IMG/VR virus record: IMGVR_UViG_3300020045_008024
Coordinates: 1 to 58,448 of that record
Reading direction: 5' to 3' (one strand)
Length of the DNA stretch: 58,448 bases
Source of the DNA: a virus
Taxonomy: Duplodnaviria; Caudoviricetes
A model generated the notes under the pieces. That model did no database searches. It had not been told where the DNA came from and saw only the letters and a program-made list of their open reading frames with translations. Below are positions 1 through 56,841 of this stretch, piece after piece. The position numbers were made by a program, and so were the translations under genes. The stretch's first letter is position 1; the number at the start of each line of letters is the position of its first letter.

Positions 1-121
1 CCACCTCAAGTAAGCCCTTGGCGGCTATGTCTGAAGGGCGGCGTGTTTTTATGCGCCGCCCTTTGTTGGTTTTGGATTACCTCGCAAGGTAAGGGCATAA
101 GATGGCAGCTATTAAACTCCC
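1..121. repeat. 121-bp direct terminal repeat, left copy (circular assembly overlap)
   Basis: 1-121 is identical to 58328-58448; it spans the end of the 57900 ORF and the start of the 102 ORF. Confidence 0.97.
34..73 (+). terminator. Probable intrinsic terminator after the lysis/tail block
   Basis: AAGGGCGGCG/CGCCGCCCTT stem followed by TGTTGGTTTT. Confidence 0.55.
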
Positions 122-1883
122 GACATTCGCAGGAATGATGCCGTCAATCGACGACCATTTGCTTGCCGACCAGAATGCTTCGTTCTGTGAAAACGCATGG
201 CTTTATTCCGGGTCGATGTACGGCCTTCCAGCGCGAGCGGAGCTGTACACCCTGCAGAGCCCCGCATCAACAACAGCATTCCGTATCCCGTTCAACGATG
301 GCGATCCGTCTTATCTCTATTCGAGCACATGGGTCGAGTTCGAGAACGCTGACACTGATTTTTTCAGTGCGCCTGTGGCCGGGGACACATACAAGCGCTT
401 CTACTGGACATCAACGTCCTCAATCCCGATGTACAACACGCTCGCCCGCATCATTGCCGGGCAGCCAGCGTGGAAGCTTGGTGTCCCGCAGCCGGGCAAC
501 ATCAACGTCACCTTGGCGGGCGGTTCGTCTTCCACGCTGGTGTCCCGCGCCTATGTGACTACCCTAGTCACGGAATACGGCGAGGAAGGCCCGGCCAGTA
601 GACCGGATCTGGTCAATGGTAAGATAGACGCGACTTACACAGTCCACATCGCTGCCGTCGGTGCCAATGACCTCGGCGTCGAACGCAACGTGAAGAAAAT
701 CCGCATCTATCGCACAATCACGTCGTCTATGGGGACGGCGGCATATTACATGGTGGCGGAAGTCACCGCGCTGTCCACGGCACAGACATACGATGACATT
801 CTCGAAGACGTGGATATCGCTGCCAACCCGATCCTCGAAAGCACGATCTGGACTGCCCCGCCGGATCTTGATGGTTTTGTCGTAATGCCGAATGGCATCA
901 TCGCAGGCTTTGTCAACAACGAGCTTTGGTTTTCGGAAGCCTACCGCCCGCACGCATGGCCAGCTGTCTACTCCATCACCGTCGAGTTCGACATCGTCGG
1001 CCTAGCTGTGATTGGCCAGACCCTTGTCGTTTGCACGAAGGGGAACCCGATCACAGCTGCCGGTGTCAACCCGTCATCGATCACCACATCAAAGCTGGCG
1101 GCGTTCGAGCCATGCCTGACGAAGGGCTCCATTCTTCCGACAGAGAACGGGGTTTATTACGCATCGCCAAACGGCATCATTCTGGTCAATTCCGGCTATG
1201 CACAGAACATCACCAGCCAGTTCATTTCCCATGACACGTGGAGTGAGATCGTTGACCGTGGCCGGGTGAACGCCGGGCGCTTCGGTAGTGCATATTACGC
1301 CTATGGGGCGGCCACCAGCGCAGCGTTCCAGCAGAACGCCTTCCAGAGCAACATGGTGCAGCAGGAAGACACTGGCGGGACATCTGACGGGTTCATGATT
1401 GACCCTGTAAACCAGAACATGGGGTTCACCTATCTGGCGGACGACAAAGACATCATCTCGATCTACAACGACGCCTATTCCGGCGAGATGCTTTTCGTGC
1501 GCGATGGCAAGGTATGCTGGCTCGACCAGCGCAAGGGGTATAAGGCAACCCCGTTCACATGGCGGTCCAAGATATTCCAGCCGCCAAAGATCGACAACTT
1601 TGCAGCCCTGAAAGTTTTCTTCTACACGGACGAGGATTACCTGCCGTCTGCACCACAGGATTTTAGCGTGGCGCAGACATTTGACCCGTTGACAAAAATG
1701 GGGGTCATCCGCATCATAGCAGACGGAAAGACAATCGCCGCCCGCGAGATACGGAAGCCCGGTGAGTTGTTCCGTCTACCATCCGGCTTCAAAGCCGACT
1801 TCTGGCAAATCGAGTTCGAGGGGCGTGTTCGGGTGAAGAGCATCCAGATGGCCACCTCTGTTAAGGAGCTATCAGGTGTATAA
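102..1883 (+). CDS. Podovirus tail nozzle/stabilisation protein (tail tubular B or P22 gp10-like position)
   Basis: 593 aa, beta-rich; YVTTLVTEYGEEGPAS, LWFSEAYRPHAWP and WRSKIF motifs; lies just before the GNAT and ejection genes. Confidence 0.7.
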   Translation: MAAIKLPTFAGMMPSIDDHLLADQNASFCENAWLYSGSMYGLPARAELYTLQSPASTTAFRIPFNDGDPSYLYSSTWVEFENADTDFFSAPVAGDTYKRFYWTSTSSIPMYNTLARIIAGQPAWKLGVPQPGNINVTLAGGSSSTLVSRAYVTTLVTEYGEEGPASRPDLVNGKIDATYTVHIAAVGANDLGVERNVKKIRIYRTITSSMGTAAYYMVAEVTALSTAQTYDDILEDVDIAANPILESTIWTAPPDLDGFVVMPNGIIAGFVNNELWFSEAYRPHAWPAVYSITVEFDIVGLAVIGQTLVVCTKGNPITAAGVNPSSITTSKLAAFEPCLTKGSILPTENGVYYASPNGIILVNSGYAQNITSQFISHDTWSEIVDRGRVNAGRFGSAYYAYGAATSAAFQQNAFQSNMVQQEDTGGTSDGFMIDPVNQNMGFTYLADDKDIISIYNDAYSGEMLFVRDGKVCWLDQRKGYKATPFTWRSKIFQPPKIDNFAALKVFFYTDEDYLPSAPQDFSVAQTFDPLTKMGVIRIIADGKTIAAREIRKPGELFRLPSGFKADFWQIEFEGRVRVKSIQMATSVKELSGV

Positions 1884-2058
1884 GTTTCCCGCCATCCCAG
1901 AGCCCACCACAGACGTTCGATCCCTGCAGGCGTCTGTGGCATCCCTGAAAGAGGCAGTCGAGCTGCTGACCGGCCAGCGGGGCGCACAGGCCCGTCCAGT
2001 GTCATGGGGTGACCTTGTTCGGCTTGGCATAGTCACGGAACAGGACATCCCGCGATGA
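1876..2058 (+). CDS. Small hypothetical virion-cluster protein
   Basis: 60 aa, GTG start, overlaps both neighbouring genes. Confidence 0.6.
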   Translation: MYKFPAIPEPTTDVRSLQASVASLKEAVELLTGQRGAQARPVSWGDLVRLGIVTEQDIPR

Positions 2059-2507
2059 TCAACACTGGCAACGTCGATCACGGCGAGCAGATAATGTCGT
2101 CCATTGGATCGGCGTTCACAAAAGTTACCATGCAGGTAATAAGCCGCAGCGAGAACGGTGTTCTCTTGGGCGGCGCGGTCTATGAAAACTACACCGGCAA
2201 GGGTGGATCCCTGTTGACCCATGTTGCCGGCTTTGCCCCGAATTGGGTCAACAGGGATCTGCTTTGGGTCATGTTCGACTACCCGTTTATCCAGCTTGAC
2301 TGCACGCAAGCGTTCTCCCAAGTCGCGGCGAAAAACAAGGCGTCTCTGTCCTTTTGCAAGAACTTGGGCTTTCAGGAAGTAATCACCTTGGGGGGTGTAT
2401 TTCCCGATGACGATATGATATTACTGCGGATGAAACGCAGCGAATGCCGCTTCCTGAAAATTCAACCAAAGACAATCTTTCCACGAAGGATCACCAACGA
2501 TGGGTAA
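2055..2507 (+). CDS. GNAT-fold acetyltransferase-like protein (T7 gp13/P22 gp14 position)
   Basis: FDYPF..L and NKASLSFCKNLGFQE GNAT C-terminal motif; between nozzle and ejection genes. Confidence 0.75.
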   Translation: MINTGNVDHGEQIMSSIGSAFTKVTMQVISRSENGVLLGGAVYENYTGKGGSLLTHVAGFAPNWVNRDLLWVMFDYPFIQLDCTQAFSQVAAKNKASLSFCKNLGFQEVITLGGVFPDDDMILLRMKRSECRFLKIQPKTIFPRRITNDG

Positions 2508-3597: not shown

Positions 3598-3618
3598 TTA
3601 CCGCGAAAGGTAACTCAA

Positions 3619-6069
3619 ATGGGTTTCGGTGCCGAACTAAAAGATTTTGTCGGGGCGTTCGAGAGTGGTTACAAGATGACCTCGGACCGCGAAGAGCGCA
3701 AGAACAAGAAAGCGCAGCAGGAAGCTGACTTCAAGCGCACTGGCGAATGGCATGACGACGACAAGAACTATCGCGACGACAAGTTCGAATACGACAAGGC
3801 GCAGGATAGCTGGCGTCGGGGTAAGTGGGAACAAGAGTTCGATTACCGCCGGCGGCAAGACGGGACCATACAGGGCCGTTGGGAAGAGCAGCAATCTGCT
3901 GATGAGAAGGACAGGCAGCTGAAGCGCGATGCCCTGCGCATCGGTGCAGCAAAAGACGGCGTCGACCCAGAGCAGATGAGAGAGCGCGATGGGTATGTTG
4001 CGCCCACTGACCGCGCACAGCCGCAAGCGCTGCCGGACGACGAGCAGAGCCTGAATGACACTGGTGATGCAACACTGCAGCAGACTTCTACCAGCACTGG
4101 CGATTTCAGCCTGCGGAACTATCTGGCATCTGTTAAGCATTCGGAGAGCGGCGGCCGTCTTCGTGCGAAGAACTCGGAGTCTTCCGCCTATGGGCCATAC
4201 CAGTTCCTTCGCGGGACGTGGGATCAGCTTGCAAGGCAGCACCCGAAGCTCGGCCTCACTCATGACGGCCGGGACGACCCGGAGCAGAACGAGCGCGCCA
4301 TCCGCCAGTTTACCTACAACAACGCCCTCGCCCTCGACAGGGCCGGCATCCCAGTCACCAATGGGACTGTCTACGCAGCGCATTTTCTTGGACCCGGCGA
4401 CGCTCCTAAGCTTCTCCGGCATTCTTCCGACACCCCGGTAAGTGAGGTTCTTGGGCGTAAAACTCTAAGTGCCAATCCGTTCCTTCGCGGGATGACCGTT
4501 GGCGACTTCCGCCGTTGGGCCGAACGCAAGGGCAACTCCCGCTCGCGCCGCCGTCAGGCCATCCCAGACGACGGTGCAGTCAGCGCAGCATCAGGCGGCC
4601 TGATCGAAGAGACAGCGCCGGATGACTTCATTCTGCCTATGGACGAAGCGGCCCCGATCCCAGAAGAGCGCCCGGCCGATGCTCCGGTTGCTACTGCAAT
4701 CCCCGAAGAGCAGGCTACGGTGCCGGCCCCCGACTATTCGGGAGAAGTTACTTCCGAAGGTAAGGAAGAGCCCACCGACGATCCGTGGGAGCAAGGCCGC
4801 CGCGCTGTGCGTGATGGCATGAAAAAGTCCATCAAGGACGCCGGCATGGACAGAGATGACGGTGCCATCGACGACCCCGAGCTTGAGGCTATCCGGCAGA
4901 ATTACCTCAAGGGGTATGGCGCTGCCCCGTCGCAGATGATGAAGCAGGTGGCCGACAAGATCGACCCAGACAAACAGATGCCCCCTGCAGAGCGCAACAT
5001 GAAGGCGATGGGGACCGTCTACCAATATTACATGGAGAAGGGCGAGCCGGAGAAGGCTCAGGCTGCTGCTGCGTCCATGGTGCAATACTACCGGGGTGCT
5101 TCGCAGCAGTTCCTTGCTCTTGCACAGAGCGCGGCTGAAAATGGCGACCTCGACAATGCTGCAAAGATGGCCATTGCTGCTTATGCCAACATCCCGAACG
5201 GCCGTGACATGTCCATCAAAAAGACAGAAGATGGCCAGTATGACATCTCAGTTGTTGACATCAAAACTGGCAAAACGGTCAACAAGAAACTCCTACCACC
5301 GGACCAGTTCGCTGCTGCCGCCATGGGCTTCAACGCCAAGACGTTTGACGATGAAATCCTGAACGCTGCCGGTGTGCCGGCTGACAAATACACAGACGCA
5401 TCTGTGGCCGACATCAGCAAAGTGGCGGAAGCTGCGCAGATGCAGGCAGAAGAGATGTTCCCAGACATGCTGCCGGCCCGGCGCTCGCTGCTTGCAGACA
5501 GCGCAGCCAGCATCGCGGCCATCAAGGAAAACGGGCTTTCTGCAAGCGATGCTCTTCGCCTAGTAGACCCCGGCGACGACGCGAGAGGTTTCGCGCCTGC
5601 GCTTGTCCCTAAAGCTGTTCGCGGGAACCCCGACCTTGTCGAGGTTACTGCTGGCGAGCAGAAGGTTATCATGCGCAAGAACACGCTTCGGCAGCTCCTC
5701 AAGGATCGTGCGACGGTGGCTGGGGAGCAGCAGGCGCTCAATGAAAAGAGAAAGACGGGCGCAAAGGACACGGAGAATACTATCAAGGATTTTTCGAATG
5801 CTGGCGATAAAATGAACGCTGCCGCTGATGAAGCAATGCAGGTTCCAGATAAAATCGTCAACGGCGCTATCGACACTGGAAAGGATATTTACAACAAGCT
5901 CATCGTCGAGCCCACCAGTGTCAAGGTCGACCGGCAGAGGCAGGATATTGTAGACGCTATCGCTGCCTACAAAAAGCAGCCTGATCCCGAAGAATTTGCA
6001 GGCGAGATTTCCGAACTTGAAGCCCGCCTGCGGATGCTCGATAGTCGTGGTGCCATCCCCGATGAATAG
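3619..6069 (+). CDS. Internal virion protein with lysozyme-like/lytic transglycosylase domain
   Basis: HSESGG...SSAYGPYQFLRGTW...YAAHFLGPG lysozyme-fold motifs near 4140-4400. Confidence 0.8.
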   Translation: MGFGAELKDFVGAFESGYKMTSDREERKNKKAQQEADFKRTGEWHDDDKNYRDDKFEYDKAQDSWRRGKWEQEFDYRRRQDGTIQGRWEEQQSADEKDRQLKRDALRIGAAKDGVDPEQMRERDGYVAPTDRAQPQALPDDEQSLNDTGDATLQQTSTSTGDFSLRNYLASVKHSESGGRLRAKNSESSAYGPYQFLRGTWDQLARQHPKLGLTHDGRDDPEQNERAIRQFTYNNALALDRAGIPVTNGTVYAAHFLGPGDAPKLLRHSSDTPVSEVLGRKTLSANPFLRGMTVGDFRRWAERKGNSRSRRRQAIPDDGAVSAASGGLIEETAPDDFILPMDEAAPIPEERPADAPVATAIPEEQATVPAPDYSGEVTSEGKEEPTDDPWEQGRRAVRDGMKKSIKDAGMDRDDGAIDDPELEAIRQNYLKGYGAAPSQMMKQVADKIDPDKQMPPAERNMKAMGTVYQYYMEKGEPEKAQAAAASMVQYYRGASQQFLALAQSAAENGDLDNAAKMAIAAYANIPNGRDMSIKKTEDGQYDISVVDIKTGKTVNKKLLPPDQFAAAAMGFNAKTFDDEILNAAGVPADKYTDASVADISKVAEAAQMQAEEMFPDMLPARRSLLADSAASIAAIKENGLSASDALRLVDPGDDARGFAPALVPKAVRGNPDLVEVTAGEQKVIMRKNTLRQLLKDRATVAGEQQALNEKRKTGAKDTENTIKDFSNAGDKMNAAADEAMQVPDKIVNGAIDTGKDIYNKLIVEPTSVKVDRQRQDIVDAIAAYKKQPDPEEFAGEISELEARLRMLDSRGAIPDE

Positions 6070-6148
6070 CCCTTGATATAGGGGAGCGGATAAAGTAAGT
6101 TACCGCCGAAGGTAACCAACCGCTCCCCCATTTCCAAGGTGAATACAT

Positions 6149-9100
6149 ATGGCCGAAGACGATCTCAGCGAATTTGTCGATCCGTTTGCAAGCAAAGAAT
6201 TTCGCGAAGCGACCGGCAACAAGATCATCGACCTGTCGGCTACCCCCCAAACTGAAAGCAGCTGGACGGATTATCCCGCAGCACTCGGATCTCGTGCAGC
6301 TGGCATCGGTGCTGATCTAAGCGCGACTGTCCGCGCCATCAGCGAAGATCGAAATGCTGATAGTGGTAGCAAAGCTTCGGCGGCTTCCGCTGCACTTGGC
6401 AAATTCGGCCAAACCCTCTTTGGTATGTTGGAAAGAGACGCAAAGGGGGCGATGACCGACGAAGGCCGGTCTGACCTCGACAGCACCATTACCGATCCGA
6501 ATTTCTGGACACTGAACTCGTTGGCGCTGAAGACAACCAACATGGCCCCCGATGTCATTGCATCGGCGGTCCCCGCTGTTGCGTTCAGGAGTGCAGCAGC
6601 AGCAGGCATAGTGAGCGGCACACTATCCGCGTCCCAGATGGTGGACGACTTCTATGCCCAGACGGACGCAATGTCCGACGAAGAGCTACGCCAGATCCCG
6701 ATGTACCGCGACTTGCGCAAGCAGGGTGCGACAGAAGAGGCTGCGCGTTCGAGCTATAACTCGTTCATCCGTGGGAACCGCCCGCTGTGGATCGGTGCAT
6801 TCACAGCGCTCACTAACAGCCTTACCCCGGGAGGCAAGATCGCGGGGGCTTTTGCTGGCACTGCAGAGAAGGCTGTTGGCGAGGTGGCAGAAGGCGTCGT
6901 AAAGCGCACTGTCAAGGGTGGAGCTGAAGGTGCCATTTCCGAAGGTGCTCAGGAAGGAACGCAGGACTACCTCACCCAGCAGGGCGAAGTAGCCGGGCAG
7001 TTGCGTGACAAGATTGACCCAAGCCAGACGGCCAACGCCGCTGCCACAGGTGCCGTCCTAGGAACAGTTCTGGGTGCAGGCGTCAGCGCGGTTACTGGTG
7101 GCAAGACAGCGGCAAAGCCAACACCGGAAGTGACACCGGAAGAGGCCATACCTTCAGAGGTAACACCGGCCACCCCCACGGAAACAACCCCTGTCGTGCC
7201 GTCTGAAGCAGTGGGCACTGAAGCGACGATTGCGCAGGACATGCAGTCGCTGAAGAACCACGGCAAAAAGTACGCCGAAATTGACGCTGCACAGCAGGCC
7301 GAAGTCGACGCCAAGCTTACTTCACGTGGGTTGAAGACGAACCCGAACGCCGCCAAGCCTGTTGAAGCTGTGGCAAAGCCGGGCGTATCGGTGGTGGAAG
7401 CCGCCGCGCCGAATGATGCACAGATACTTGCCATCACCAAGGGTAAAAAGAAAAAGCCGACTGCTGTGCTCCCAACGGACCAAGCCGTGGCAGTGGCGCT
7501 CCCGCCAGTCGAGCAGCCAGTTGCAGCACCTGTCGAGCAGGCCCCCGTGCAGCCAGTTGCAGCACCTGTCGAGCAGGCCCAGCCCGTTACCCCCGAGGTA
7601 ATTCAGGAAACCCCCACAGCTGCCCAGCCAGTGGCTTCAGAGCCTGTGGTGGCCCAACCAACCCAGACAATCGTAGAACCCACTCCTGCGCCAGCTGTGG
7701 CCGAACCTGCTATGGTCCCCGACGCTCCGGTGGTGGCCCCGAAGGGTCCGCGCATCCTAACCGACCCTGTTGCCGAAGCGAAGGCAGCAGCTGACTACGA
7801 TGCACAGCTCGAAAAGAACCTGCGTGGCGCTGCAGAAGCTGACAACAAGCTCATGAAGACTGCGGCGGCAGCTGACAGCCCAGAGGCGCTGGACATCAAG
7901 TCCAAGATCTCTGCGAAAAAGCGTGCTGACATCGTGGCCAATCATGAGCGCGCCAACAAGGTTATGGAAGCTCATCTGCCGGCGGACATTGAGCAGGGCG
8001 TATTCAGCACGAAGCCCGACCGCATCGTTGCCGGCCGCAAAGCCATGCTCGACCGTGCAACCGCTATGCTTGCGCAGGCGGAAAAGGACGGGGTGGCCAT
8101 CCTAGATAAGCTGAAAGACAACACCGACAGGGAAGTGGCCCCTACACCTGCGGCCATTCTTCTGGCAGAAGCCCGTGGCCTTGTTCGTGCTGCGGCGAAG
8201 GCTAAGGCCGAAGGTAAGGAAGTGAGCAAGGCTCGCCTGCAGGAGTTCTCCAAGCGCGAATTCTCGCTGCGCATCGGTGACGCCAAGGATGTACTCGAAG
8301 CCCGTCGCGTTGCCGGTGATGCTGCGAAGAAAGTTGTGTCGTCTGATGAAGTCGTCGGCGCGACTGTTGACGAGGACGTGCAGGAGCTTGGTGACGGCGC
8401 TCCGATCGAAGACGGCGAGTTCACGGATGATGGCGACCGTGTCGACACCACACCGGACGACGAGGCGGCCAACACCGGGAACCCGGAAGACGCCATTATC
8501 CGCAAGGAAGAGGGCGAAGTTGCCTCAGAGGTAGAAGGCAAGCAGCGCCCGGTCGCAGCCAAGGTCAAGGCTATGGGCGAGGGAGAGGGCTTCACAACCC
8601 CGAAGACCGATACCCGCAAGGCTGTCGTCGAGACGAAGAAAAAGCGTGTCTTCGTCAAGCCGGCGGCTAAAGAGCCAAGCCCGGCGGCAGCGCGCAAGCT
8701 GGCTGAAATCAAGCTCACCGTTGCCGAACAGCGTGTCGGACGGCAGATCGTCGAGGATGCCATTGCCGAAGACAAGGCTGCAAAGGCCACGGTCAAGGAG
8801 CGTATTGAGAAAGCACGTGGGGAGACGAACACCGCCCCCACACAGGCGCAGGCCACTGCTGGCAATTACAAGAAAGGCAAGGTCAGCATCGACGGTGTGG
8901 CCATCGCCATCGAGAACCCGAAGGGGTCTGTCCGGTCCAACAAGGATCCGGCCGGCCCGGCGTGGTCTGTCAAGATGCGCCATGACTATGGTTACCTCGA
9001 AGGTACGAAAGGTGCCGACGGCGATCCGATTGACGTTTACGTCGGCCCGAAGCCCGATGCGACTTACGTCTATGTCGTCGATCAGATCGACCCGTTTACC

Positions 9101-12100
9101 CAAGCGTTCGATGAACACAAGGTTATGTTTGGCTTTGATACACAGCAGGAAGCTGTTCGCGCCTACGATGCTGCGTTTTCCGATGGCCTAGGCATCAACC
9201 GCATCGGCGGCATGGCGCAGATGACACGCGAAGAGTTCAAGGCGTGGTCGAAGTCTGCCCAGCAGGAGCGCTCCGACCTGTCCACGGCCCGAGCTGATGA
9301 AATGCGTTCGCTGATGGTTGGGGAGCCGGACCCTGATGTGGCCACCTACTCCGTCGATGCAACTCTTGCAGAGGAGCTGCGGCGCGAAGTTGCGTTCACT
9401 GGCAAGGTTCGCGACGGGTATGTGCTCGACCCGCTGACCAAGCGCTTCGCCAAGGCTGTCCGCGAAATGTCGGTCAGCGATGCACTGTGGGAGGTTGATC
9501 TGTCCAATCTCGCTGGTGCGCCCCGGGTGATTGCCGGCACGGCGCGGGCGCAGCTCACCAAGCTTGTCGGTGATATGCGCATCCATATTGTCACCAACGC
9601 CGATATCCTGCGCCTTTCCAACTATTCCCCGACCGTAAAACTCAACGGCTACCATGCGTTCAACGCTGCTGCCAAAGACAGCGATGTCATTATCATCAAC
9701 CAAGATCTTCTGGCCAACCCTGACAAGTTCCGGCATGTCGTGCTGCATGAAGTCACCCACGCGGCGACTGTTCGTGGCATGGTGCAGGACACCACTCTAC
9801 TCAACAACATCATCAACTCGGCCAACTACATCCGTGATTATCTTCGGAAGGCGGGCCGGCAGGAAGACCTCGACGCTGTTGCCTATGGGACAACAGGCGC
9901 GAACGGCGTGACGGCAGCGAAAGAGTTCATTGCCGAAGCATTCTCGAACAAGCGCTTCCAAGAAATCCTAGCCACGATCCCCGCTCACGAAAAGATGGTC
10001 GAGTATTTCAAGCTCGGTGAGAGCCGCAAGACCATGTGGGGCGCACTGGTGTCGGCTGTCCGGCGCGCACTCAAGATGCCCGATGGCTCTTACAACGTGC
10101 TTGAGGTCGCTATCCGGCTAACTGAAGACGCGATGAAGCCCCGCGTCAACGCTGTCGAAGATCTGGAAAACTTCTTCAACGCCCGCTCGTTCCTTGGGGA
10201 AGGCATGGCGAAGTCCGTCGGTGATCAGGCCCGCAGGATCGTCAAGGACTTTGAGGCACGGCAGGAGTATGCGCCGACCAAGGGCAACCCTTGGCTTATC
10301 GGCCTGCGCACCCTCGACAGCATCGCCCGGGCTTCGGATCGTTACTTCAAGGGTAACAATGTCGTCCGCAAAATCGCCAACATCATGGAAGGCCAGCGCG
10401 TCGCTGCCATCCGTGAGTTCGATGCTGCCGCCCCAATCATCCAGAAGCTCCACAGCCTCGAACGAAAGTACCAAGGCAAGGTGTGGGAAGACTTCACCCA
10501 GCTGGTTCACGACGAGACGATGGCCGGTGTCTACGCTGACCGCCCTCTTTCCGACCAGAAGCACATCAGTGCCAAGGGCAAGAAAGACACGTGGCAGCGC
10601 TCGCAGCACCCCGTCCTCGCCAAGATGCACGCCGCGCTCCCTGCCGATCTGAAGGTAGCCCGGCTCGAAGCTATGAGCTATTTCCGCGACAAGCAGAACG
10701 AGGTGGCTGTCAAGCTCATCCGCAACCGCATCGTCACGCTGTTTGACACGACGGATCCCGATGGTATGGCGACCCGGCTCCATGAAGGCAAAGCCACGGA
10801 CGCTGACAAGCTCCTCATGAGCGAGGCATACGATGCCATTGCAGCCGCTGGTGTTCTGTCCAAGATCAATGGCCCGTATTTCCCGCTCATGCGCCGTGGC
10901 AATTACGTGGTCAAGGGGAAGACGGAAGTTACCTTGCCGGGTAACGCGACCCGCATTTCCGACAACGAGTTCGAGTTCACCGATGCCGATGCAGCGGCTG
11001 AGTTCTCACAGTCGCAGTCCGGCCGCCCGACAATCCGCACCATCTACGTGGACAAGGACACCGGGGCAACGACTGGCACTGAAGACGGCAAGACCGTTCG
11101 TCTCGGTTCCAACGACATGAACGCCGTCCCGCGCTACCGTGTGGTTGTCCAGAACCGCCACATGGAGATGTTCGACACCATGAAGCAAGCTCGTGACCGC
11201 GTGGCGCAGCTGCGTGCCAAGGGCATTCAGGCTGACGACGCGGTGCCACGGTCTTTTGAAGCACATGGCCTGCAGACCGATGCCCTGTCCACACAGATGC
11301 GTCGGATGAACACCGTGCTTGAGCGCCGGGCAGATGAACGCCAGTTCACCCCCACCCAGAAGCAGGAGCTTTTGGACACGCTCAACGAGATGTCTATCAA
11401 CATGCTCGGATCGACCCGCATCCAGTCCCGCCACCTGCCGCGCCAGTATGTCGCTGGTGCGTCGAAGGATCTGGTGCGCAACACGACTGACTATGCGCAC
11501 AGCATGGGCAACTACGTCGCCAAGCTGGACTATCGCCCGCAGCTCGACACCGCTTTGGTCGAGCTTGACGATGCAGTAAAGGCCAACGCTGCTGACGGCC
11601 TGTCCGCCGGCCGCACGGCTATCCAGAACGAGATCGTTCGCCGCGTCACCACCGCAAACCCGATTGCTGAAAACCAGTTCGGCAACGCGGTGACGAAGCG
11701 CATTCTTGCCGTGTCGTTCATCGACAAGCTCATGTCGCCTTCGTATTCCGTGATCAACGCCCTGCAGCCGATGATGACGACGGCACCATACCTTGCTGGC
11801 CACTATGGCGCTGGCCGGGCCTACGCCGCCATGTCCAAGGCGTACAGCGACGTTGGATCCCTGAAGGTGCTCAAGGAAGGCTTTATCGCCACGGCTGACA
11901 AGGTCCGCGCCGGCCGCGAGAACGTGCCGACAGACCCGGTGAACCTGATCAAGTCCCGCCTGAAGAACAAGCAAGAGATCGCCATGCTCGACATCCTTAT
12001 CGAGCGCGGATCGCTCGACGTTGAGAGTGGGCTTGAAGTCTCTGAAATGGTCCGTGACAAAGCCGGTATTATCGGCAAGCTGGACACTGGTATCGGTTAC

Positions 12101-13279: not shown

Positions 13280-13303
13280 CAACATACCTTAGAGGTAATC
13301 CCT

Positions 13304-14914: not shown

Positions 14915-14931
14915 TTACCTCTCAAGGTAAC

Positions 14932-39756: not shown

Positions 39757-39775
39757 ATTACCTTGTGAGGTAGAC

Positions 39776-43842: not shown

Positions 43843-46266
43843 ATGGTCGGAATGATGAACTTCGGGCTTGGCCTCTTCCCGGGGCTAGGCAAAGCTGGTG
43901 GTTCGGGGGCCGCACAGCAGCAGAACGTCGCACAGCGCGGCCAGCAGCACAATGGCACCACGGCGAAGAACGGCCTGCTGTCACGCATGAAGGGCGTCAC
44001 GCGCTTCACAGTCGGTCATGGTGGCGCGCTGTCCCTCGCGGGGGTCATCAACAATTTCTGGCTGAATAACGCGGTGGCGCGGGAAGTCAGCGGTGCTGCG
44101 TACACCATCCGCAAGGCGGCTATTTCCTATAACGGCATCACAGTGCCTGTTACCTTCGACGGTAACAGGACACTGGCAGTTACCGCCGGGATGGATGAGA
44201 AGCTGACAAGCTCCGTCTATCCGTCGCAGTTCGGTGTGTCGCAGTTCGTCGCCGGCCAGCCGGTGTTCTTCCGCATGAGCCTCGATCTGCCGTCAGACGG
44301 GTCTGGCATCGCAGTGCAGTCAAGCCCGATGTATCTCGGGACCGAGAGCCAGTTTCGCTACAACCCTGCCAACGACATCGACGACGTGGACGCGGTGCCG
44401 GGGATGGCCCAGCCGACGGGCGCTGAAACGTGGATACCCTTCCCCCATCCCGTCATGCTGGTAGGCACCCCGGCGGCTCCTATGTCGTCTCTGGTGGGTA
44501 TCGGTGACAGCATCATCGACGGGTCTGTCGACAACTCTGGCGACGGCGGTGCTGGTGGTGGCTGGTTGCGTCGTGCTGCCTATGCGGAGAACATCCCGTA
44601 CTTCTCCCTTACGCGCACAGGCGACAAGCACCAGTTCTTCAACGCATCGAGCACCAAGAGCCTGAAGATGGTGAAGCGCGCCGCTGCGAACGCGGCCTAT
44701 ATCGCGTTGGGTAACAATGACATTCGCGACGGCCGGAGCTATGTGAACATGCAGGCGGACGCCCGGGCCACGTGGCTGGCGCTGCGCGCTGTCGGCGTCG
44801 GGTACATCGGCCAAGCCCTTGTCACCACCGAGACGACTTCTACAGACCAGAATTCGTCGTTGGCAGGGCAGACGCCGGTTACGAATTTCGGCGTCGGCGG
44901 TGTGAAGGATCAGTTCAACACGTTCCTGTCAGGGCTCGACGGCGGCGCGCTCAACGAAGCCATCGACACACCGAGCGCGATCCAGACCAACTACAAATTC
45001 AACGTGCCGATGTTTCAGACGACGCTAGCTGCCGCTGCTGTTGCGTATGCCGGCAACGTGAGCTTGACGCACAAACCAGACGATCTGCAGTATCTTGTTT
45101 TCGAGCCATCCACCCCGGCAAATCAGGAAGTGACATACTTTCACGTCACCGGATCCTCTGGGGCAGGTCCATACACCACCACGCTGACGTTCGGCCCTAC
45201 CAAGGCCCATGCGTCTGGCGCGGTGATCAAGTCCAGCCTTGCAGGTGATGGTGTGCACCCCCAACAGCTCGCACACAAGGCCATGGCGACAAAGGCAGCG
45301 CCGGCCGCCAAGCGCATCAAAGGACTCAAGAGCCGCTGGTATAACCTAGCCAGCTCGTTCGAGATCGACTTCGAGAACAGGCGGGCGATAAAGTCTGGCC
45401 TCATCGTCCCGATCTCTTCGTTTGTCACATGCAGCCGCGCTTCAGTAGGCCGGGCGTATGACGGCCAGTCGTGGTCCGACTTCGCGGCCGACCAGCTGCG
45501 GTATGCTGATGGTGGCGGGCTCTACGTCGAGCCGCAGCGTATCAACTACTTCAGGAACAACACGTTCCAAGGTGGTGTTGCCCCGACTACAAAGCCAAAT
45601 ATTTGGCTGTTCAACGTCCCTGCGGGGGTCACTGCCACCAGCTACGCATATGGGGTAGAGAACGGCATCGACTTTGCTGATGTTCGGTTTTCTGGCACAG
45701 CTTCAGCTACTGGCGGCATCACGGTCGATGGTGAGGTGTCTATAGCAACAGCCGTCGGTGACACGTGGACTTCATCTGGTTACGTAGCGTTGCTTGGCAA
45801 CGCTGGCATACCGTTAACAGGGACAAATATCGGCGGACGATCTGCAACCAGTGGCGGCAGTGCCACCGAGTTTCCGACAAGCGCAAACACTATGTCCCAG
45901 ATGACTAGGAGCATGAAACGGTTTTCGCACACGTTCACGCTCACAGTCGCCGGTACTGCCTTGGTGAACCACCGAACCAGCTATAACTGGTTCGGTGCAG
46001 GGGCAATCGATTTCACTGTAAGGTTTGGTTCCCACCAGATGGAGAAAGCCAGTTCGGCCACCAGCCTAATTACGACAACAGGAGCCTCCGCAACAAGAGA
46101 GGCTGATGTTGTCACAATCGCGCTTCCAGCCGGCACCCACTCCCTGACGTTCACGTTCGATGACCTGACAACACAGACGATAACAGGATGCACAGGCAAC
46201 TATGTCATCCCGACAAACCTGAACAGGCAAGTTATCGAGAAGATCGTGGGTGTTCAGACAGCCTAA
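43843..46266 (+). CDS. Head-spike fibre-like protein with SGNH/GDSL esterase domain
   Basis: N-terminal FGLGL peptide; GDS, GNND and DGVHP SGNH blocks; C-terminal 300 aa resembles the RcGTA head-spike fibre (IDFE..SRAS..LRY..QMEKASSATSLITTTGASATREAD). Confidence 0.75.
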   Translation: MVGMMNFGLGLFPGLGKAGGSGAAQQQNVAQRGQQHNGTTAKNGLLSRMKGVTRFTVGHGGALSLAGVINNFWLNNAVAREVSGAAYTIRKAAISYNGITVPVTFDGNRTLAVTAGMDEKLTSSVYPSQFGVSQFVAGQPVFFRMSLDLPSDGSGIAVQSSPMYLGTESQFRYNPANDIDDVDAVPGMAQPTGAETWIPFPHPVMLVGTPAAPMSSLVGIGDSIIDGSVDNSGDGGAGGGWLRRAAYAENIPYFSLTRTGDKHQFFNASSTKSLKMVKRAAANAAYIALGNNDIRDGRSYVNMQADARATWLALRAVGVGYIGQALVTTETTSTDQNSSLAGQTPVTNFGVGGVKDQFNTFLSGLDGGALNEAIDTPSAIQTNYKFNVPMFQTTLAAAAVAYAGNVSLTHKPDDLQYLVFEPSTPANQEVTYFHVTGSSGAGPYTTTLTFGPTKAHASGAVIKSSLAGDGVHPQQLAHKAMATKAAPAAKRIKGLKSRWYNLASSFEIDFENRRAIKSGLIVPISSFVTCSRASVGRAYDGQSWSDFAADQLRYADGGGLYVEPQRINYFRNNTFQGGVAPTTKPNIWLFNVPAGVTATSYAYGVENGIDFADVRFSGTASATGGITVDGEVSIATAVGDTWTSSGYVALLGNAGIPLTGTNIGGRSATSGGSATEFPTSANTMSQMTRSMKRFSHTFTLTVAGTALVNHRTSYNWFGAGAIDFTVRFGSHQMEKASSATSLITTTGASATREADVVTIALPAGTHSLTFTFDDLTTQTITGCTGNYVIPTNLNRQVIEKIVGVQTA

Positions 46267-46281
46267 GTTACCTCGCAAAGT

Positions 46282-46312
46282 AAAACCCCCGGCTCATCAC
46301 CGGGGGTTTTTT
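46282..46312. terminator. Bidirectional intrinsic terminator
   Basis: AAAACCCCCGG-CTCATCA-CCGGGGGTTTTTT between convergent genes. Confidence 0.88.
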
Positions 46313-47706
46313 CATGTCCAAGCAGCGGGGCTAAAGCGCGCCTTGCCGAACTGCGGCGGCTTCAGCTTCCGCATGATGACGCCCTGCACCATGCCACCAT
46401 GAGCCGCCAGCGCCGCATACTGCAGGGCATCGATTGGGTGTGAGTAGGCGTTCTTGTCCGGCGTCGGCTTTGTCTGGCCGGACTTCATCTTTGAATAGCG
46501 GTAGCCGCCACGCAGCCCCTGCACAATTGTCGGGCAGCGTGAGCGGTCAACCATGAACGTCGCCTTCCCGCCGGACTGCTGCAGCAGGAAACTCTCGATA
46601 GCACGCAGCCGGGGGTCGATGTCGTTGGTTGGCGCGGGGAACGCCATGAAGCCGGCTGACTTCAACAGGTCGAAGGAAGTCTCTTCATAGTGGCTGGACT
46701 TGGCTATGCCAGATGGATCCCCGATCACGGCCACAGGCATGCCCATGTAGCGGTCTTGGTAGATAGCAGGCTTGAGGTTCCGCTGCACGTGGAGATCAAG
46801 CCCTATGCCCGTCCCTGCCACCTCTTCGAGCACAAGGAAGCGCCCCCGGTGATCCAGCTGGCATATGATGCTCCACGGGTCGCGCCCGAAGTCCTGCCCA
46901 ACCAGCAGCGGGCGGCCGGGGACTGGCTCAAGGCTGTCATATGAATGGAAATCATGAGTATAGCTTTCGCGGAACACAGCCATGCCAGAAGGGTCGTTGC
47001 CGTATTCAGCATCGACATAACGGCGGACCCATTCAGCGGACTGCCCGCGTGCTAGGCGCTCGTAATATTCGTAGCCGCCCGGCAGATGGGCGATATTTTC
47101 AGCCCATTTCGTCCGGCCGCCCGGCTGCTTGAAAAGATGGTAGTCTGACGGCAGACTGTCTTCGAGCAGGGAGTGCCACTCGCCGCCTTCGTTTGGGAAG
47201 TTTCCATCCATGATCAGACCGAACCACGTCGGGCCGCCCTGCGCCGAAGACGGATAACGCCCAAGACGGCCGCAAAGGGACGGAATGATGGCGGGGTCAA
47301 TCTCGGGGAATTCGTTCACCCACGCTCCGGTGAGCTGCATCGACAGCAGACGCCGCTGGTCGTTTTCATCGTCGAGCGGGATGAGATGGATTTCGCACCG
47401 CACGTCATCGAACGTGATATAGATCGTGTTTTCACTTACCTTGAAGGTAGTGATCGGTTCTGCCCATGTGTAGAATTCCTTCAACACGGTCTGCTTGATC
47501 TGCTGCAGGGTCTGGCGGACGATGGCGAAGCGCGTGTGCCGCAAGCCGTCCGGCCCGGGGGCCTGTTCTTGGGCGCGGCGGAGTACTTCCATAAGGCACC
47601 CCGTCGACTTGCCGGACCCAACAGGGCCTAGGATGATGCGGACGAACGCATCAGACCTCATGAACGAAGACACGATAGGTGGTGCGTCGAAGAGCATTGT
47701 TGCCAT
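46312..47706 (-). CDS. terL: Terminase large subunit
   Basis: Walker A GPVGSGKS, GAWVNE Walker B, nuclease GQDFG, GDPSG, SHPIDALQY. Confidence 0.92.
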   Translation of the reverse strand: MATMLFDAPPIVSSFMRSDAFVRIILGPVGSGKSTGCLMEVLRRAQEQAPGPDGLRHTRFAIVRQTLQQIKQTVLKEFYTWAEPITTFKVSENTIYITFDDVRCEIHLIPLDDENDQRRLLSMQLTGAWVNEFPEIDPAIIPSLCGRLGRYPSSAQGGPTWFGLIMDGNFPNEGGEWHSLLEDSLPSDYHLFKQPGGRTKWAENIAHLPGGYEYYERLARGQSAEWVRRYVDAEYGNDPSGMAVFRESYTHDFHSYDSLEPVPGRPLLVGQDFGRDPWSIICQLDHRGRFLVLEEVAGTGIGLDLHVQRNLKPAIYQDRYMGMPVAVIGDPSGIAKSSHYEETSFDLLKSAGFMAFPAPTNDIDPRLRAIESFLLQQSGGKATFMVDRSRCPTIVQGLRGGYRYSKMKSGQTKPTPDKNAYSHPIDALQYAALAAHGGMVQGVIMRKLKPPQFGKARFSPAAWT

Positions 47707-48251: not shown

Positions 48252-48306
48252 GGTGTATGCTCTCGTAAAGTGGGGTTACCCCACAAGGTAACATCAGGCG
48301 GACAAT

Positions 48307-50615: not shown

Positions 50616-50647
50616 CGCTTACCTTCTGAGGTAACAAGGAGAGAGCA

Positions 50648-53115: not shown

Positions 53116-53137
53116 GTTACCTCGCAGGGTAACAATT

Positions 53138-54538: not shown

Positions 54539-55333
54539 ATGGCTGACGGGGCGTTCCAAAGTACGGCGTTTGATACATTCGCTTTCCAGAGCGAGTATAG
54601 CCTTCAGTTGAGCGCCACTGAAGCACAGGATACTGCTTCATTCAGCACTGCTATTGTGGCGGTGCTGAATATGGCTGTTACTGACACGCAGGACATAGCA
54701 TCATTTACTGTGTCCGTCGCCCGGCTGGTTTCTATCGACGTTACAGAAGCGCAGGACACAGCGTCATTCACATCCGACGCGACAACAGTTGTGGCAATAG
54801 CAGCCACCGAAGCGCAAGACGTTGCAGCACTTACTGTGGCGCTCGATACGAACGCATACCTGTACTTCAATCTTGACGAGGTGCCGGACGTAGCAGCGTT
54901 TGCTACAACTTCCACGACGTTCGCTAGTTTTGCTGTGGCAGAAGCGCCAGATATAGCCGCCGTTACGGTCGAGCTTGCTGCGGCGCTTACCTTCGCGGTA
55001 ACAGAAGCACAGGACACTGCTGGTTTTGTGGCAACGTCCACGACGGTAGCGACACTGGCCGTAACCGAGCCACAAGACACTGCGAGCTTTGCAACAAGCT
55101 CCACAACGTTCGCCACGTTCTCCATTTCGGAGCTACCCGACGTTGCATCGTTCACGTTGTCGAGCAAGACACTGGTTACCTTCGCGGTAAGCGAAGCCCA
55201 AGACATGGCAGTGTTCCGAAGCTTCACAGCATTTGTCGATGCGGATGACGATAGCGACAGCGTGTTCGTGCCACCAGAAAACAAGCTGTCTATTGTGGCA
55301 GCGGTCCAAGACATAGCCACAGTGCAGAGGTAG
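54539..55333 (+). CDS. Fibre-like protein with ten 21-aa repeats (TEAQDxAxF)
   Basis: Repeats visible in translation; N-terminal AFQSTAFDTFAFQ. Confidence 0.75.
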   Translation: MADGAFQSTAFDTFAFQSEYSLQLSATEAQDTASFSTAIVAVLNMAVTDTQDIASFTVSVARLVSIDVTEAQDTASFTSDATTVVAIAATEAQDVAALTVALDTNAYLYFNLDEVPDVAAFATTSTTFASFAVAEAPDIAAVTVELAAALTFAVTEAQDTAGFVATSTTVATLAVTEPQDTASFATSSTTFATFSISELPDVASFTLSSKTLVTFAVSEAQDMAVFRSFTAFVDADDDSDSVFVPPENKLSIVAAVQDIATVQR

Positions 55334-55340: not shown

Positions 55341-55625
55341 ATGCAGATTGGTAAGTTTCGAAAGGCTGTGGCCGACCGTAAAAAATACACGGTCGATTAC
55401 GTAAACTGGCTGGAAAGTGATGAGACAATCACAGCGGTCGCCGCTTCGGTGCCGGCCCCGGCAGACGATTTCTATGTCGACATGTTCGTAGTGGACACGA
55501 CAGGCAAACTGGTGGTATTCTACGTCAGCGGCGGGCTTTCCAGCGGGGAGTACCGGGTGGTTGTCAAGATCACCACGAGCGAAAACCAAATCAAAGAGGA
55601 TTGGGTTACCTTCGTGGTAACTTGA
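55341..55625 (+). CDS. Fibre-tail adaptor-like protein
   Basis: YTVDYVNWL...VSGG..G.YRV...TT. Confidence 0.7.
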   Translation: MQIGKFRKAVADRKKYTVDYVNWLESDETITAVAASVPAPADDFYVDMFVVDTTGKLVVFYVSGGLSSGEYRVVVKITTSENQIKEDWVTFVVT

Positions 55626-55638: not shown

Positions 55639-56370
55639 ATGGCAATCGAAGTCAAACATAATTTCCAGTCTGCCAAGGCGGACAGCGCCGATGCGTCGCT
55701 CATCCGGCCGTCTTCGTGGAACGAAGCCCACAAGGTCATCATGGGGACCGCAGCTCTCGTCGGCCGCTATACAGCAGGTACTGGCGATGCGCAGGAAGTT
55801 GGCCTCGGCAACGGCCTGCAGTTTACTGCGGGCACTCTGGTGGTGAACCAGTCGCAGCTTACCCAGCTGGCCCGCCTCGACGGCGCGGACTTCACCGGGC
55901 AGGTTACAGCACTCACCCAAGCCACTGCGAACGACACCACCCGCGTGGCGACAACCGCATATGTCAAAGCTAACTTTTCCGCCCGCCTGATCAACGCCGG
56001 GTTTGGTATGGAAGGTGGCGGCGACCTCAGTGCAAACAGGACGATTACGCTTGGTCTACCGTCCACACTCAGCGCCTCGTCTTCGAACGACGTTTCCGGG
56101 TACTCCCACACCCACGCAGTCAATACGCTCAGCGTAGTGCAGGACGGCACAAAGCAGATCGGTGCAGGTGCTGTCGGCAGCTATGCAATGCTGTACACGC
56201 AGGTCAACTCAGTCGCGTCACCTGACGACGTGCGATCAGGTGGCAACTTGAATTACGCAGATGCAGACGGCGGAACAGGAGCGAGCCCCGGCGGCAGCTG
56301 GCGGTGCATGAGCCGGTCGAACGCAGGCACGCTCGGCACTCGTGTGTCCCTGTGGGTGCGAATTTCGTAA
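55639..56370 (+). CDS. Short tail fibre/receptor-binding protein
   Basis: PSSWNEAH, ATTAYVK, GGGDLSANRT, HTH, GAVGSYA, GSWRCM fibre motifs. Confidence 0.75.
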   Translation: MAIEVKHNFQSAKADSADASLIRPSSWNEAHKVIMGTAALVGRYTAGTGDAQEVGLGNGLQFTAGTLVVNQSQLTQLARLDGADFTGQVTALTQATANDTTRVATTAYVKANFSARLINAGFGMEGGGDLSANRTITLGLPSTLSASSSNDVSGYSHTHAVNTLSVVQDGTKQIGAGAVGSYAMLYTQVNSVASPDDVRSGGNLNYADADGGTGASPGGSWRCMSRSNAGTLGTRVSLWVRIS

Positions 56371-56382
56371 AGGAGAAAGAAT

Positions 56383-56817
56383 ATGGAATTTCGACTTCCC
56401 GCCTACAACAGGCACGGAACAATTGACTGCGAAATCAACCACCCTGTTTATGGGTGGATCCCCACAACACTGCAGCCGGACGATGCTGAAACGTCGGCGC
56501 TGTATGAGGAGGTTCTCGCTGCCGGCAACATCGACGCATATGTTGCCCCGTCACCGGAAGAGGCCCGGGCCAACCTTGCGCCTCTCACACGCCGACAGTT
56601 CCGGCTTGGGATGCGGCAGCTCAACATTTCCACTGACAGCATCGCCGCTGCGATCAATGCTATACCCGACGATGCTGACCGTGAAATCGCGCTGATTGAG
56701 TGGGAAGAGGCAGACGGGTTCGACAGAATGCACCCGCTTGTCATCTCGCTTACCGGCGCATTCGGCCTGCAGCCAATCGATGTCGATGCGATGTGGACTG
56801 CAGTATCCACAGTCTAA
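56383..56817 (+). CDS. Tail fibre assembly chaperone-like protein
   Basis: IDCEINHPVYGWIP, LTRRQFRLG, IEWEEA..FDRMHPLV. Confidence 0.7.
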   Translation: MEFRLPAYNRHGTIDCEINHPVYGWIPTTLQPDDAETSALYEEVLAAGNIDAYVAPSPEEARANLAPLTRRQFRLGMRQLNISTDSIAAAINAIPDDADREIALIEWEEADGFDRMHPLVISLTGAFGLQPIDVDAMWTAVSTV

Positions 56818-56841
56818 CTTACCCCGGAAGGTAAACCCCCA

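Follow-up and report, generated by a model that had tools for sequence, protein, structure and literature searches.

We analyzed the complete IMG/VR virus record IMGVR_UViG_3300020045_008024, a member of the Caudoviricetes whose 58,448 bases we refer to as the window, and in particular an interrupted palindrome, TTACC-N5/6-GGTAA, that recurs along its whole length. The record is classed as having a direct terminal repeat (DTR). The repeat is 121 bp long (1-121 and 58328-58448), which leaves a unique genome of 58,327 bases. Among the replication genes are those for a DUF927 primase-helicase, an SNF2 helicase, a PD-(D/E)XK nuclease, and a family A DNA polymerase; a DUF2201/MoxR-type pair is also encoded. 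The virion and packaging genes include a large terminase, an SU10-type portal, a capsid protein, and internal virion proteins. A search of the window for Phage_integrase gave no match, and the window proteins that we scanned included no phage RNA polymerase family. The window's closest relatives in culture are four near-identical Rhizobium phages (RHph_TM27A, which grows on Rhizobium phaseoli, and three kin), with DNA identity of about 75% over 12% of the first 25 kb. Our search of published articles found no paper on these Rhizobium phages or on the TTACC-N5/6-GGTAA motif.

Enrichment and architecture of the palindrome

The window contains 38 exact copies of the palindrome, 17 with a spacer of five bases (N5) and 21 with a spacer of six (N6). 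The sites at 77 and 58404 are the terminal repeat's copies of one site, so there are 37 exact copies (17 N5 and 20 N6) in the unique genome. With another 32 copies that have one mismatch, there are 69 sites with at most one mismatch. A previous reading of the same DNA from its letters alone (the sequence-only reading) had reported at least 37 exact and about 27 one-mismatch copies, with the two spacers in similar numbers, and our counts bear this out.

Shuffles that preserve dinucleotides (n = 100) gave a mean of 0.02 exact copies per spacer, and at most 1. In shuffles that preserve codons (n = 300, with the proteins and the codon usage kept), the mean was 0.56 exact copies (maximum 3, versus 37 observed) and 6.9 one-mismatch copies (maximum 15, versus 32 observed). 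The enrichment that the sequence-only reading had estimated from base composition therefore clearly persists when codons are taken into account, the check that it had proposed, and both types of shuffle rule out chance or codon bias as the source of the copies. (The codon-preserving shuffles, as well as the placement of sites relative to genes, rest on our own rough gene calls, which assign 87% of the genome to coding sequence.) The array is real and strongly selected.

The architecture of the sites is narrow. When we scanned spacers of 0-20 bases, copies appeared at 5 and 6 only, and the everted arrangement GGTAA-N-TTACC had 0-1 copies per spacer. The lone half-sites are ordinary: TTACC occurs 95 times and GGTAA 86 times, which makes them the 120th and the 172nd commonest 5-mers. 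The extension to GTTACCY...RGGTAAC that the sequence-only reading had noticed is present, if weak, with Y after TTACC at 31/37 sites, R before GGTAA at 29/37, G before TTACC at 18/37, and C after GGTAA at 20/37.

Placement relative to genes and along the chromosome

About 40% of the exact sites (15/37) are not fully within a called gene, as are 12/32 of the one-mismatch sites, and the other 22 exact sites lie inside genes. This agrees with the earlier description of copies both at gene junctions and deep in essential genes. Many of the junction sites fill the whole gap between a stop and the next start: they touch the stop codon and end 4-9 nucleotides (nt) before the start. Of the gaps of at least 10 nt, 20/46 hold a site in the window and 29/48 do in G005, one of the five relatives (G001-G005) that we compared alongside RHph_TM27A. 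All four of the window's strand-switch regions have a site. Across four motif-rich genomes, 11/13 strand-switch gaps have one versus 74/163 co-directional gaps, which is suggestive of a preference for strand-switch gaps, although these are also longer than co-directional ones. Three sites (77, 14915, and 53117) abut strong terminator-like hairpins.

Within genes, 18 of the 22 exact sites are in the frame xTT-ACC, which would avoid an in-frame TAA and the rare codon TTA. This frame accounts for the V/I-T...G-K and V/I-T...V peptides that had been noticed in the encoded proteins.

The sites are also evenly spread, with a mean density of about one per 0.85 kb. For all 69 sites in the window, the coefficient of variation of the gaps between sites is 0.65 and the largest gap is 2.5 kb. 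The expected coefficient is 0.97 if sites are placed at random and 1.06 if the split between intergenic and intragenic sites is kept (P < 0.001). Even spacing was also found in RHph_TM27A (0.71) and in G005 (0.68); over these two and the window, the split-keeping nulls were 1.03-1.21, with P ≤ 0.0007 for all three. Evenness was less clear in G004 (0.91, P = 0.054) and was not significant in G002 by a simple test.

The sites may lie away from promoters. The window has seven sigma-70-like matches with at least 10/12 bases, of which one touches a one-mismatch site and the other six are 91-525 bp from the nearest site.

Conservation of the arms

Twelve exact sites could be aligned to RHph_TM27A, and all ten arm bases are kept in eight of them. 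Given the 72% identity of the flanks, the chance of keeping the arms would be 0.038 per site (P = 2e-9 overall). In these eight sites, the loops match at the background rate (71% identity). Thus, the arms are kept while the loops drift.

Are the arms kept as bases or as pairs? Across five genomes, one-mismatch variants that would be compatible with G·U pairing were about as common on the sense strand (49) as on the antisense strand (44), and compensatory double changes were at the chance rate (14/279 versus 3.7% expected). Selection acts on the bases and not on pairing. These counts do not support the recurring RNA processing hairpin that the sequence-only reading had offered as one explanation. 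Mobile repeats of the REP or MITE type (repetitive extragenic palindromes or miniature inverted-repeat transposable elements), which are extragenic, 20-40 bp or longer, and inserted as units, can be rejected: the sites are only 15-16 bp long and lie in frame within genes at orthologous positions.

Distribution across relatives and hosts

We examined relatives in two samples. In a capsid-anchored sample of 80 IMG/VR loci, 51 had one or more exact sites, and the sites totaled 155 over 852 kb. A nuclease-anchored search gave 234 stretches, of which we examined the best 80 and counted the core TTAC-N7/8-GTAA in 47 records. In 36 of these 47 (related phages of about 60 kb) the core has 11-68 copies, versus 0-4 for controls.

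The relatives differ in how they use the two spacers, and one spacing usually dominates. The ratio of N5 to N6 is 17:20 in the window, 8:26 in RHph_TM27A, 1:36 in G005, and 17:6 in G004, where the sites take the form TTACCC-N3/4-GGGTAA; thirteen loci have N5 only. Some lineages have shifted words (TTACT-N6-AGTAA, GTTAC-N8-GTAAC, or TACCT-N3-AGGTA). Others have unrelated dispersed palindromes, for example ATGTCA...TGACAT, TCACTC...GAGTGA, GGTTNAACC, TCCCT-N6-AGGGA, TCACG-N7-CGTGA, TTAAC-N6-GTTAA, TTGCTC-N4-GAGCAA, and ACTAC-N-GTAGT, at 5-10 copies each per 17-67 kb (these are small counts). One such genome (G018, comprising loci L204 and L205) has the palindrome AATGTCAYAC...GTRTGACATT at 907, 5212, 9553, 13916, and 23543. 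The steps between its first four copies are strikingly regular (4305, 4341, and 4363 bases), but there are only five copies on this 25-kb fragment.

The motif belongs to the phages, and host chromosomes have it at the chance level. In the assembly of a Bradyrhizobium isolate (G037, 8.7 Mb), 9 of the 12 exact sites are on one 60.5-kb phage contig, and the remaining 3 compare with 9 occurrences of a control pattern. In a second assembly, 11 of 13 exact sites are on two contigs. In a metagenome-assembled genome (MAG) from the Xanthobacteraceae (G039), all 10 exact sites fall within about 50 kb of one contig, with none outside the prophage region. The reversed control pattern occurs 8-11 times per host genome or assembly (8-9 times in G037 and G039).

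The region in the Xanthobacteraceae MAG (contig C32, about 48-108 kb; L180 and L183:17238-18335) is a prophage related to the window's phage. Host metabolic genes border it on one side, and on the other are genes for a tyrosine integrase and an OmpR-type winged-helix protein. The 60.5-kb contig in the Bradyrhizobium assembly is a separate, whole phage. Because of this prophage and this contig, we think that part of the family is temperate or is carried in cultures. Members with an integrase have 3 (G001), 10 (G002), and 10 (the G039 prophage) exact copies, and members without one have 37 (the window), 37 (G005), and 23 (G004).

A proposed docking site for a phage protein

We propose that a sequence-specific, phage-encoded protein, dimeric and with two-fold symmetry, docks on double-stranded DNA at TTACC-N5/6-GGTAA. 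Each subunit would read one TTACC half-site, the intervening bases would be free to vary, and both half-sites would be reached from one face of the helix. Selection would maintain about 70 sites (37 of them exact), evenly placed about 0.85 kb apart, by using about 40% of the usable intergenic gaps and by writing the rest into coding sequence. The function would be to cover the whole chromosome, that is, to mark, organize, or road-block phage DNA during lytic growth, rather than to control a few promoters.

Three lines of argument lead to this proposal. First, a symmetric reader of duplex DNA is pointed to by the two-fold symmetry of the site together with the conserved identity of the arm bases, the free center, and the restriction to two spacings. 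Second, because the motif is absent from host chromosomes and sister lineages have private variants of it, the binding protein is arguably phage-encoded and co-evolving with its sites. Third, the sites are spread evenly, run through coding sequence, and seem not to be tied to promoters, which argues for a function at the level of the whole chromosome. We put the probability of this reading as a whole at roughly 0.55; in it we infer the protein, its origin in the phage, its binding to duplex DNA, and its purpose alike. The sequence-only reading had likewise suggested genome-wide sites for a phage protein. The symmetry, the base conservation, the phage specificity, the even spread, and the conserved positions all fit that idea, and the protein itself is the part that stays conjectural.

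The sequence-only reading had considered the mixture of 5- and 6-base spacers to be odd for a dimer. We disagree. The half-site centers would be 10 or 11 bp apart, and as one turn of B-DNA is 10.5 bp, the two spacings would lie on either side of a single helical turn. One dimer that accepts different spacers may have a precedent in the C repressor of rhizobiophage 16-3, which is said to bind operators of the forms ACAA-N4-TTGT and ACAA-N6-TTGT. Reportedly, that temperate phage has few such operators and they are at promoters. (Our literature search returned no relevant match for this repressor.)

A more speculative extension, which we consider doubtful, is that the palindromes are a lineage-private code for self: each lineage of this widespread family of phages (about 60 kb, from soil Proteobacteria) would have its own palindrome every 1-4 kb, at the expense of codon choice in essential genes, read by a fast-evolving phage protein that distinguishes the phage's DNA from that of the host or of a co-infecting relative. 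If so, the mark could serve selective replication, packaging, protection, or exclusion, and it would amount to an undescribed identity system of lytic phages, analogous to Chi or parS. As for parS itself, a reader of the ParB or KorB type acting on parS or OB sites can be rejected, as there is no protein with a ParB_N domain in the window (no match to PF02195 at E ≤ 0.1 in six frames, while control genomes did match).

Candidates for the binding protein

Our best candidate in the window's lineage, which we put forward tentatively and at low odds, is P0123, a 103-amino-acid (aa) protein encoded on the minus strand at 24993..25304, in the replication module. Its AlphaFold model (pLDDT confidence score of 90.2) has helices followed by a two-strand hairpin, as in a three-helix bundle with a wing. 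The top Foldseek matches of the model are DNA-binding domains of the MarR family, which are dimers, and of the OmpR/SaeR/AdeR type. The match probabilities are 0.97-1.0 for nearly all of them (a few are 0.92-0.96), with TM scores of 0.44-0.57 and E values of about 0.01-0.04. On the basis of the model, P0123 is thus predicted to have a winged-helix DNA-binding fold. At the sequence level, P0123 scores 16.0-16.6 bits against Pfam's Trans_reg_C, below the gathering cut-off of 26.2; 3/8 members of its family match Trans_reg_C at E ≤ 1; and its sole sequence match in PDB is to a Trans_reg_C protein (E = 0.071).

Two other families track the motif loosely. The fam2 gene (24607..24993, minus strand) adjoins the gene for P0123, and its product has a conserved C-terminal LFPSD motif. 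It matched no Pfam or PHROG family, and the Atlas gave no usable match for it, only a poor model. The third candidate, P0001, is an all-helical early protein of 244 aa (39831..40565, minus strand). Its model has a pLDDT of 87, it matched no Pfam or PHROG family, and its Atlas matches are to unnamed viral clusters only. Relatives of P0001 were found by profile searches, and none was confirmed by single-protein search. In a profile of nine genomes, all three families are present in 8/8 of the TTACC-bearing genomes and missing from the one without the motif. Their orthologues in RHph_TM27A are EVB29_062 (the winged helix), EVB29_063, and EVB29_028.

The N5-only lineages have a longer, divergent winged-helix homologue elsewhere in the genome. 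In five N5-only loci (L266, L274, L278, L255, and L282), 8-10 kb in, two or three tandem small genes share the end motif of fam2 (...FPS/T..L/M.A.I.LA...). They may represent a small protein family that is expanding beside the nuclease gene.

The sequence-only reading had listed other candidates as well. For the protein that it gave as 246 aa at 39831, we found no fold match in PDB (the best E value for P0001 is 0.58). Among the related genomes compared, the helix-turn-helix (HTH) protein at 36697 and the open reading frame (ORF) at 34273 have relatives only in RHph_TM27A.

Points against the proposal and alternative explanations

Several results weigh against a duplex-binding phage protein as we have described it. 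The three families that track the motif are each missing from some relatives that have it. In a larger sample of 39 records that are at least 90% complete (31 motif-rich and 8 motif-poor, related to one another and hence not independent events), we found the winged-helix family in 22/31 motif-rich and 3/8 motif-poor records, fam2 in 21/31 and 2/8, and the 244-aa family in 24/31 and 3/8. So, although the winged-helix candidate that the sequence-only reading had named does appear to have the fold expected of it, it is not found in all motif-bearing relatives, being absent from 9/31. Five complete motif-rich genomes (13-68 core copies) have no match to the winged-helix family at E ≤ 1 or to Trans_reg_C at E ≤ 0.1, and G078 and G086 have only a canonical Trans_reg_C protein. 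Different lineages may use different binding proteins, or a core protein may have drifted in specificity. Also, our promoter scan is weak: it found 9, 12, and 9 matches in three parts of the window, barely more than the 6.5, 9.9, and 6.1 in shuffles. In at least 10 junctions, the 3' arm of the site occupies the position expected of a ribosome-binding site, 4-9 nt before a start codon, and an effect of the junction sites on translation is possible. Finally, single strands of the site can fold, if weakly (mean of −5.5 kcal/mol as RNA and −3.3 as DNA), and a reader of hairpins on single-stranded DNA is a weaker possibility.

In that first alternative, which we consider unlikely, a hairpin in the single-stranded template of the lagging strand would recruit the DUF927 primase-helicase or another replication protein, so that priming or loading takes place about every kb. 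It could work with either fork direction, as the palindrome is the same on both strands, and the even spacing of about 0.85 kb over the genome is as expected. The phage has genes of its own for a primase-helicase, a polymerase, and an SNF2 helicase, and the winged-helix gene lies within the replication module. However, the DNA folds are weak (3/37 are above −2 kcal/mol), and there is no excess of compensatory changes. Loops of 3-8 bases would fold equally well, yet only loops of 5 and 6 are found. Also, we know of no primase that requires a 10-base palindrome.

Second, the palindrome could act in RNA: a transcribed hairpin would punctuate polycistronic messages by affecting their processing or stability, or would hide the next ribosome-binding site, perhaps together with an RNA-binding protein. 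In its favor, the 15 exact sites at junctions often touch a stop codon and end shortly before the next start, and the 3' arm with the purine-rich end of the loop resembles a Shine-Dalgarno sequence. It too seems unlikely, slightly more so than a hairpin in DNA. The 22 exact sites inside genes include many that are over 1 kb from any start, the G·U variants show no preference for the sense strand, compensation is lacking, and the loop has no strand asymmetry that follows transcription. Furthermore, in such tiny gaps any site is forced to be close to a stop and a start.

Third, the sites could be like the stoperators of Cluster A mycobacteriophages, with an immunity repressor that binds all across a prophage and blocks transcription elongation. 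Only for the Cluster A operators and stoperators (as for L5 gp71 and the TipsytheTRex repressor) is the mechanism of such an array known. There are twenty or more sites per genome, many of them in short gaps, and the site and its protein co-evolve into distinct specificities (PMC9283540). The sites that we describe are likewise dispersed over the genome, in short gaps and in genes, with specificities that are private to lineages, and some relatives are temperate (the prophage with a tyrosine integrase in the Xanthobacteraceae MAG) or have an integrase (G001 and G002). Nevertheless, we consider this improbable. Stoperators are described as asymmetric 13-mers that are bound by a monomer, are oriented relative to transcription, and serve lysogeny (PMC9283540), whereas the sites here are palindromic and are the same in both arms of the genome. 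The window has terminal repeats and no integrase match, and no repressor was identified in it. Lysogenic silencing is also disfavored because the relatives with an integrase have the fewest copies and those without one the most (3, 10, and 10 versus 37, 37, and 23), although this is a small sample and is confounded by ancestry.

Fourth, a regulator of the host, such as a response regulator like CtrA, might read the sites, which we view as very unlikely. The CtrA box, TTAA-N7-TTAA, has the 4+7+4 geometry of the N5 class, with two short halves (4-5 bases) one helical turn apart. Its reader is a winged helix of the OmpR family, which is broadly the type of P0123, and CtrA boxes are known from phages of Alphaproteobacteria, where they cluster in one region (PMC9437464). 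The hosts of the window's relatives are Rhizobium and Bradyrhizobium. But CtrA is made by the host and has its sites in the host genome, while the palindrome is at or below the control rate in host chromosomes, is spread evenly over the phage, and is replaced by other private palindromes in related phages. Also, the sites retain the CC/GG pair and, by the motif's definition, C as the fourth base in all copies, and 20/37 of them have the N8 geometry, which is the wrong spacing for CtrA.

Least likely of all is that the palindrome is the target of a DNA methyltransferase or a restriction-modification system and is enriched because the mark itself is used: interrupted palindromes with halves of 4-5 bases do resemble restriction-modification targets and RHph_TM27A is annotated with a putative methyltransferase, but the window has no relative of that gene and no methyltransferase family in Pfam scans of its larger proteins (small ORFs were only partly covered), and two spacings would be unusual for one modification enzyme.

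Comparison with Cluster O mycobacteriophages and significance

The closest published case is in the Cluster O mycobacteriophages, which have 34 copies of a 17-bp dyad repeat, TGTTCGG-N3-CCGAACA. About a third of these copies are in genes, most are away from predicted promoters, and the host lacks the repeat; the phages show no obvious sign of being temperate, and the authors, who commit to no function, expect the repeat to be bound by a dimeric protein (PMC4351075). The window shares with these phages a short dyad word with more than 30 copies, both between and inside genes, that is absent from the host. We view this as analogy and not homology, as the sequence (TTACC-N5/6-GGTAA here), the host phylum, and the virion type are unrelated. 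The array in the window also differs in having two spacings and about twice the density, in being demonstrably even, and in its conservation across a very large uncultured family, with private palindromes in sister lineages. The Cluster O papers are the only relevant ones that we found in the literature on phage genomes with dyad-symmetric repeats.

Thus, dispersed dyad repeats in phages are already known (they have been in print since at least 2015), and what stands out here is the density, the even spacing, the spread across a family with private variants, and the existence of cultured relatives. If the sites mark phage DNA as self, or organize it, then they would add to phage chromosome biology a layer that is general and has been overlooked, as well as a practical constraint on recoding or synthesizing such genomes. 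The family would also be a good test-bed, as it offers up to 68 core copies per genome, even spacing, many uncultured relatives, sister lineages with other words, and isolates from Rhizobium.

Individual sites and their surroundings

Within the terminal repeat, the exact N6 site at 77..92 (second copy, 58404..58419) ends 9 nt before an ATG at 102. It directly follows a 15-pair terminator-like hairpin (32-65). In the left part of the window, the N5 site at 2125..2139 is intragenic and is letter-for-letter the same in RHph_TM27A, the N6 site at 3598..3613 fills the gap between a stop at 3597 and a start at 3619 (with its arms kept and its loop changed in both RHph_TM27A and L003), and another N6 site, at 6100..6115, is intergenic. 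Two sites are in the gene for a virion protein of 2376 aa: an N5 site at 7587..7601 and an N6 site at 10929..10944, the latter not kept in RHph_TM27A. This protein (6149-13279) has an InPase domain (residues 899-1035), matches to DarB-like antirestriction PHROGs, and one match to a portal protein in PDB. We detected no methyltransferase, helicase, or RNA polymerase family in it, and its C-terminal part, of 1200 residues, has no assigned function. The N6 site at 14915..14930 is at a convergent junction, where it touches the stop at 14914 and adjoins a terminator-like hairpin.

In and around the replication genes, the primase-helicase gene has an N5 site at 17412..17426 and an N6 site at 17921..17936 (arms kept and loop changed in RHph_TM27A). 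They are followed by intragenic sites at 18914..18928 (N5) and 19531..19546 (N6, not kept in RHph_TM27A) and by an N5 site at a gene junction (21084..21098). The SNF2 helicase gene contains an N5 site at 22052..22066, with 8/10 arm bases kept in RHph_TM27A, and an N6 site at 22568..22583 that is not kept there. Arms are kept in RHph_TM27A for the N6 site in the gene for DNA polymerase A (26981..26996) and for the N5 site in the DUF2201 gene (30864..30878). Other N5 sites from this region are intragenic (25605..25619 and 28559..28573), 4 nt upstream of a start codon (29360..29374), or outside of our gene calls (31990..32004).

Further to the right, the sites at 33917..33932 and 34757..34772 (both N6) and at 36452..36466 and 36947..36961 (both N5) are intragenic, and the one at 36452 is a perfect 15-bp palindrome. 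An N6 site at 37799..37814 is outside of our gene calls. Two small paralogous early genes on the minus strand (38075-38551 and 38554-38850) each have a site near the 5' end: an N6 site at 38529..38544 for the first, whose ATG is at 38551, and an N5 site at 38802..38816 for the second. Their products have the stretch ...EQH.LRAKLMG... in common and matched no family, except for a weak PHROG match for one of them. Two more N6 sites are in the divergent early region, at 40805..40820 (5 nt upstream of a start codon) and 41245..41260 (a perfect 16-bp palindrome), and an intragenic one is at 44150..44165. The N6 site at 48276..48291 lies between the divergent genes for the terminase and the portal and is kept in RHph_TM27A, L005, and L006; the one at 50619..50634 is at a gene junction. 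The N6 site at 53117..53132 begins 1 nt after the capsid gene's stop, just before a strong terminator-like hairpin (53138-53165); by a strict test, it is an exact motif in 4/9 aligned loci. Near the right end, N5 sites at 54987..55001 and 55176..55190 are intragenic, an N5 site at 55606..55620 is at the 3' end of a gene and is kept in 3/3 aligned loci, and an N6 site at 56819..56834 fills a gap from stop to start.

About 7 of the 32 one-mismatch sites are expected by chance, given the codon-preserving shuffles. Three of these sites recur in RHph_TM27A: the same variant is kept at 8992..9006, the site at 10342..10356 is kept, and the site at 12097..12111 is letter-for-letter the same. Those near gene ends include sites in or filling a stop-to-start gap (13284..13298 and 24590..24605, respectively), sites 4 nt upstream of a start codon (20402..20417 and 23645..23660), a site that overlaps a stop codon (29899..29914), and one that touches a stop codon (32267..32282). 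The first three bases of the site at 37326..37341 are the stop codon of a minus-strand gene, and the site at 46268..46283 is at a convergent junction, 1 nt after a stop. The gene for the 244-aa protein has one-mismatch sites on either side, at 39758..39773, where the site adjoins a terminator-like hairpin after the gene, and at 40603..40618, 37 nt upstream of it. The site in the large terminase gene (47436..47450) is an exact motif in 0/32 aligned loci and is possibly a chance copy. The remaining one-mismatch sites are at 3843..3858, 4748..4763, 4902..4917, 6822..6837, 7148..7163, 16401..16415, 21452..21467, 26521..26536, 28120..28135, 31219..31233, 31753..31767, 33082..33097, 33242..33257, 34416..34430, 35028..35043, 35879..35893, 38339..38353, and 43143..43158.

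Between the small early genes and the 244-aa gene is an AT-rich region with no gene called (38900-39800) and with no TTACC site inside it. Several copies of a second repeat (core AACCCTAAAGTTT / AAACTTTGGG) lie there in direct and inverted orientation, and two longer direct repeats are near 39150 and 39730. The region resembles an iteron-bearing origin or control region.

The product of 42019-42681 is a 220-aa protein whose C terminus matches the SH3-like domain of R67-type dihydrofolate reductase (DHFR_2, E = 2e-13); none of the six related genomes in the comparison (RHph_TM27A and G001-G005) encodes a relative. EVB29_077 of RHph_TM27A (L001:42248-45331), which is labeled in GenBank as a "putative integrase protein," and the DUF927 primase-helicase of the window are orthologues that share 65% identity over 1029 residues, so the label looks mistaken. 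The 14-bp attL and attR features of the RHph_TM27A record fall inside genes.

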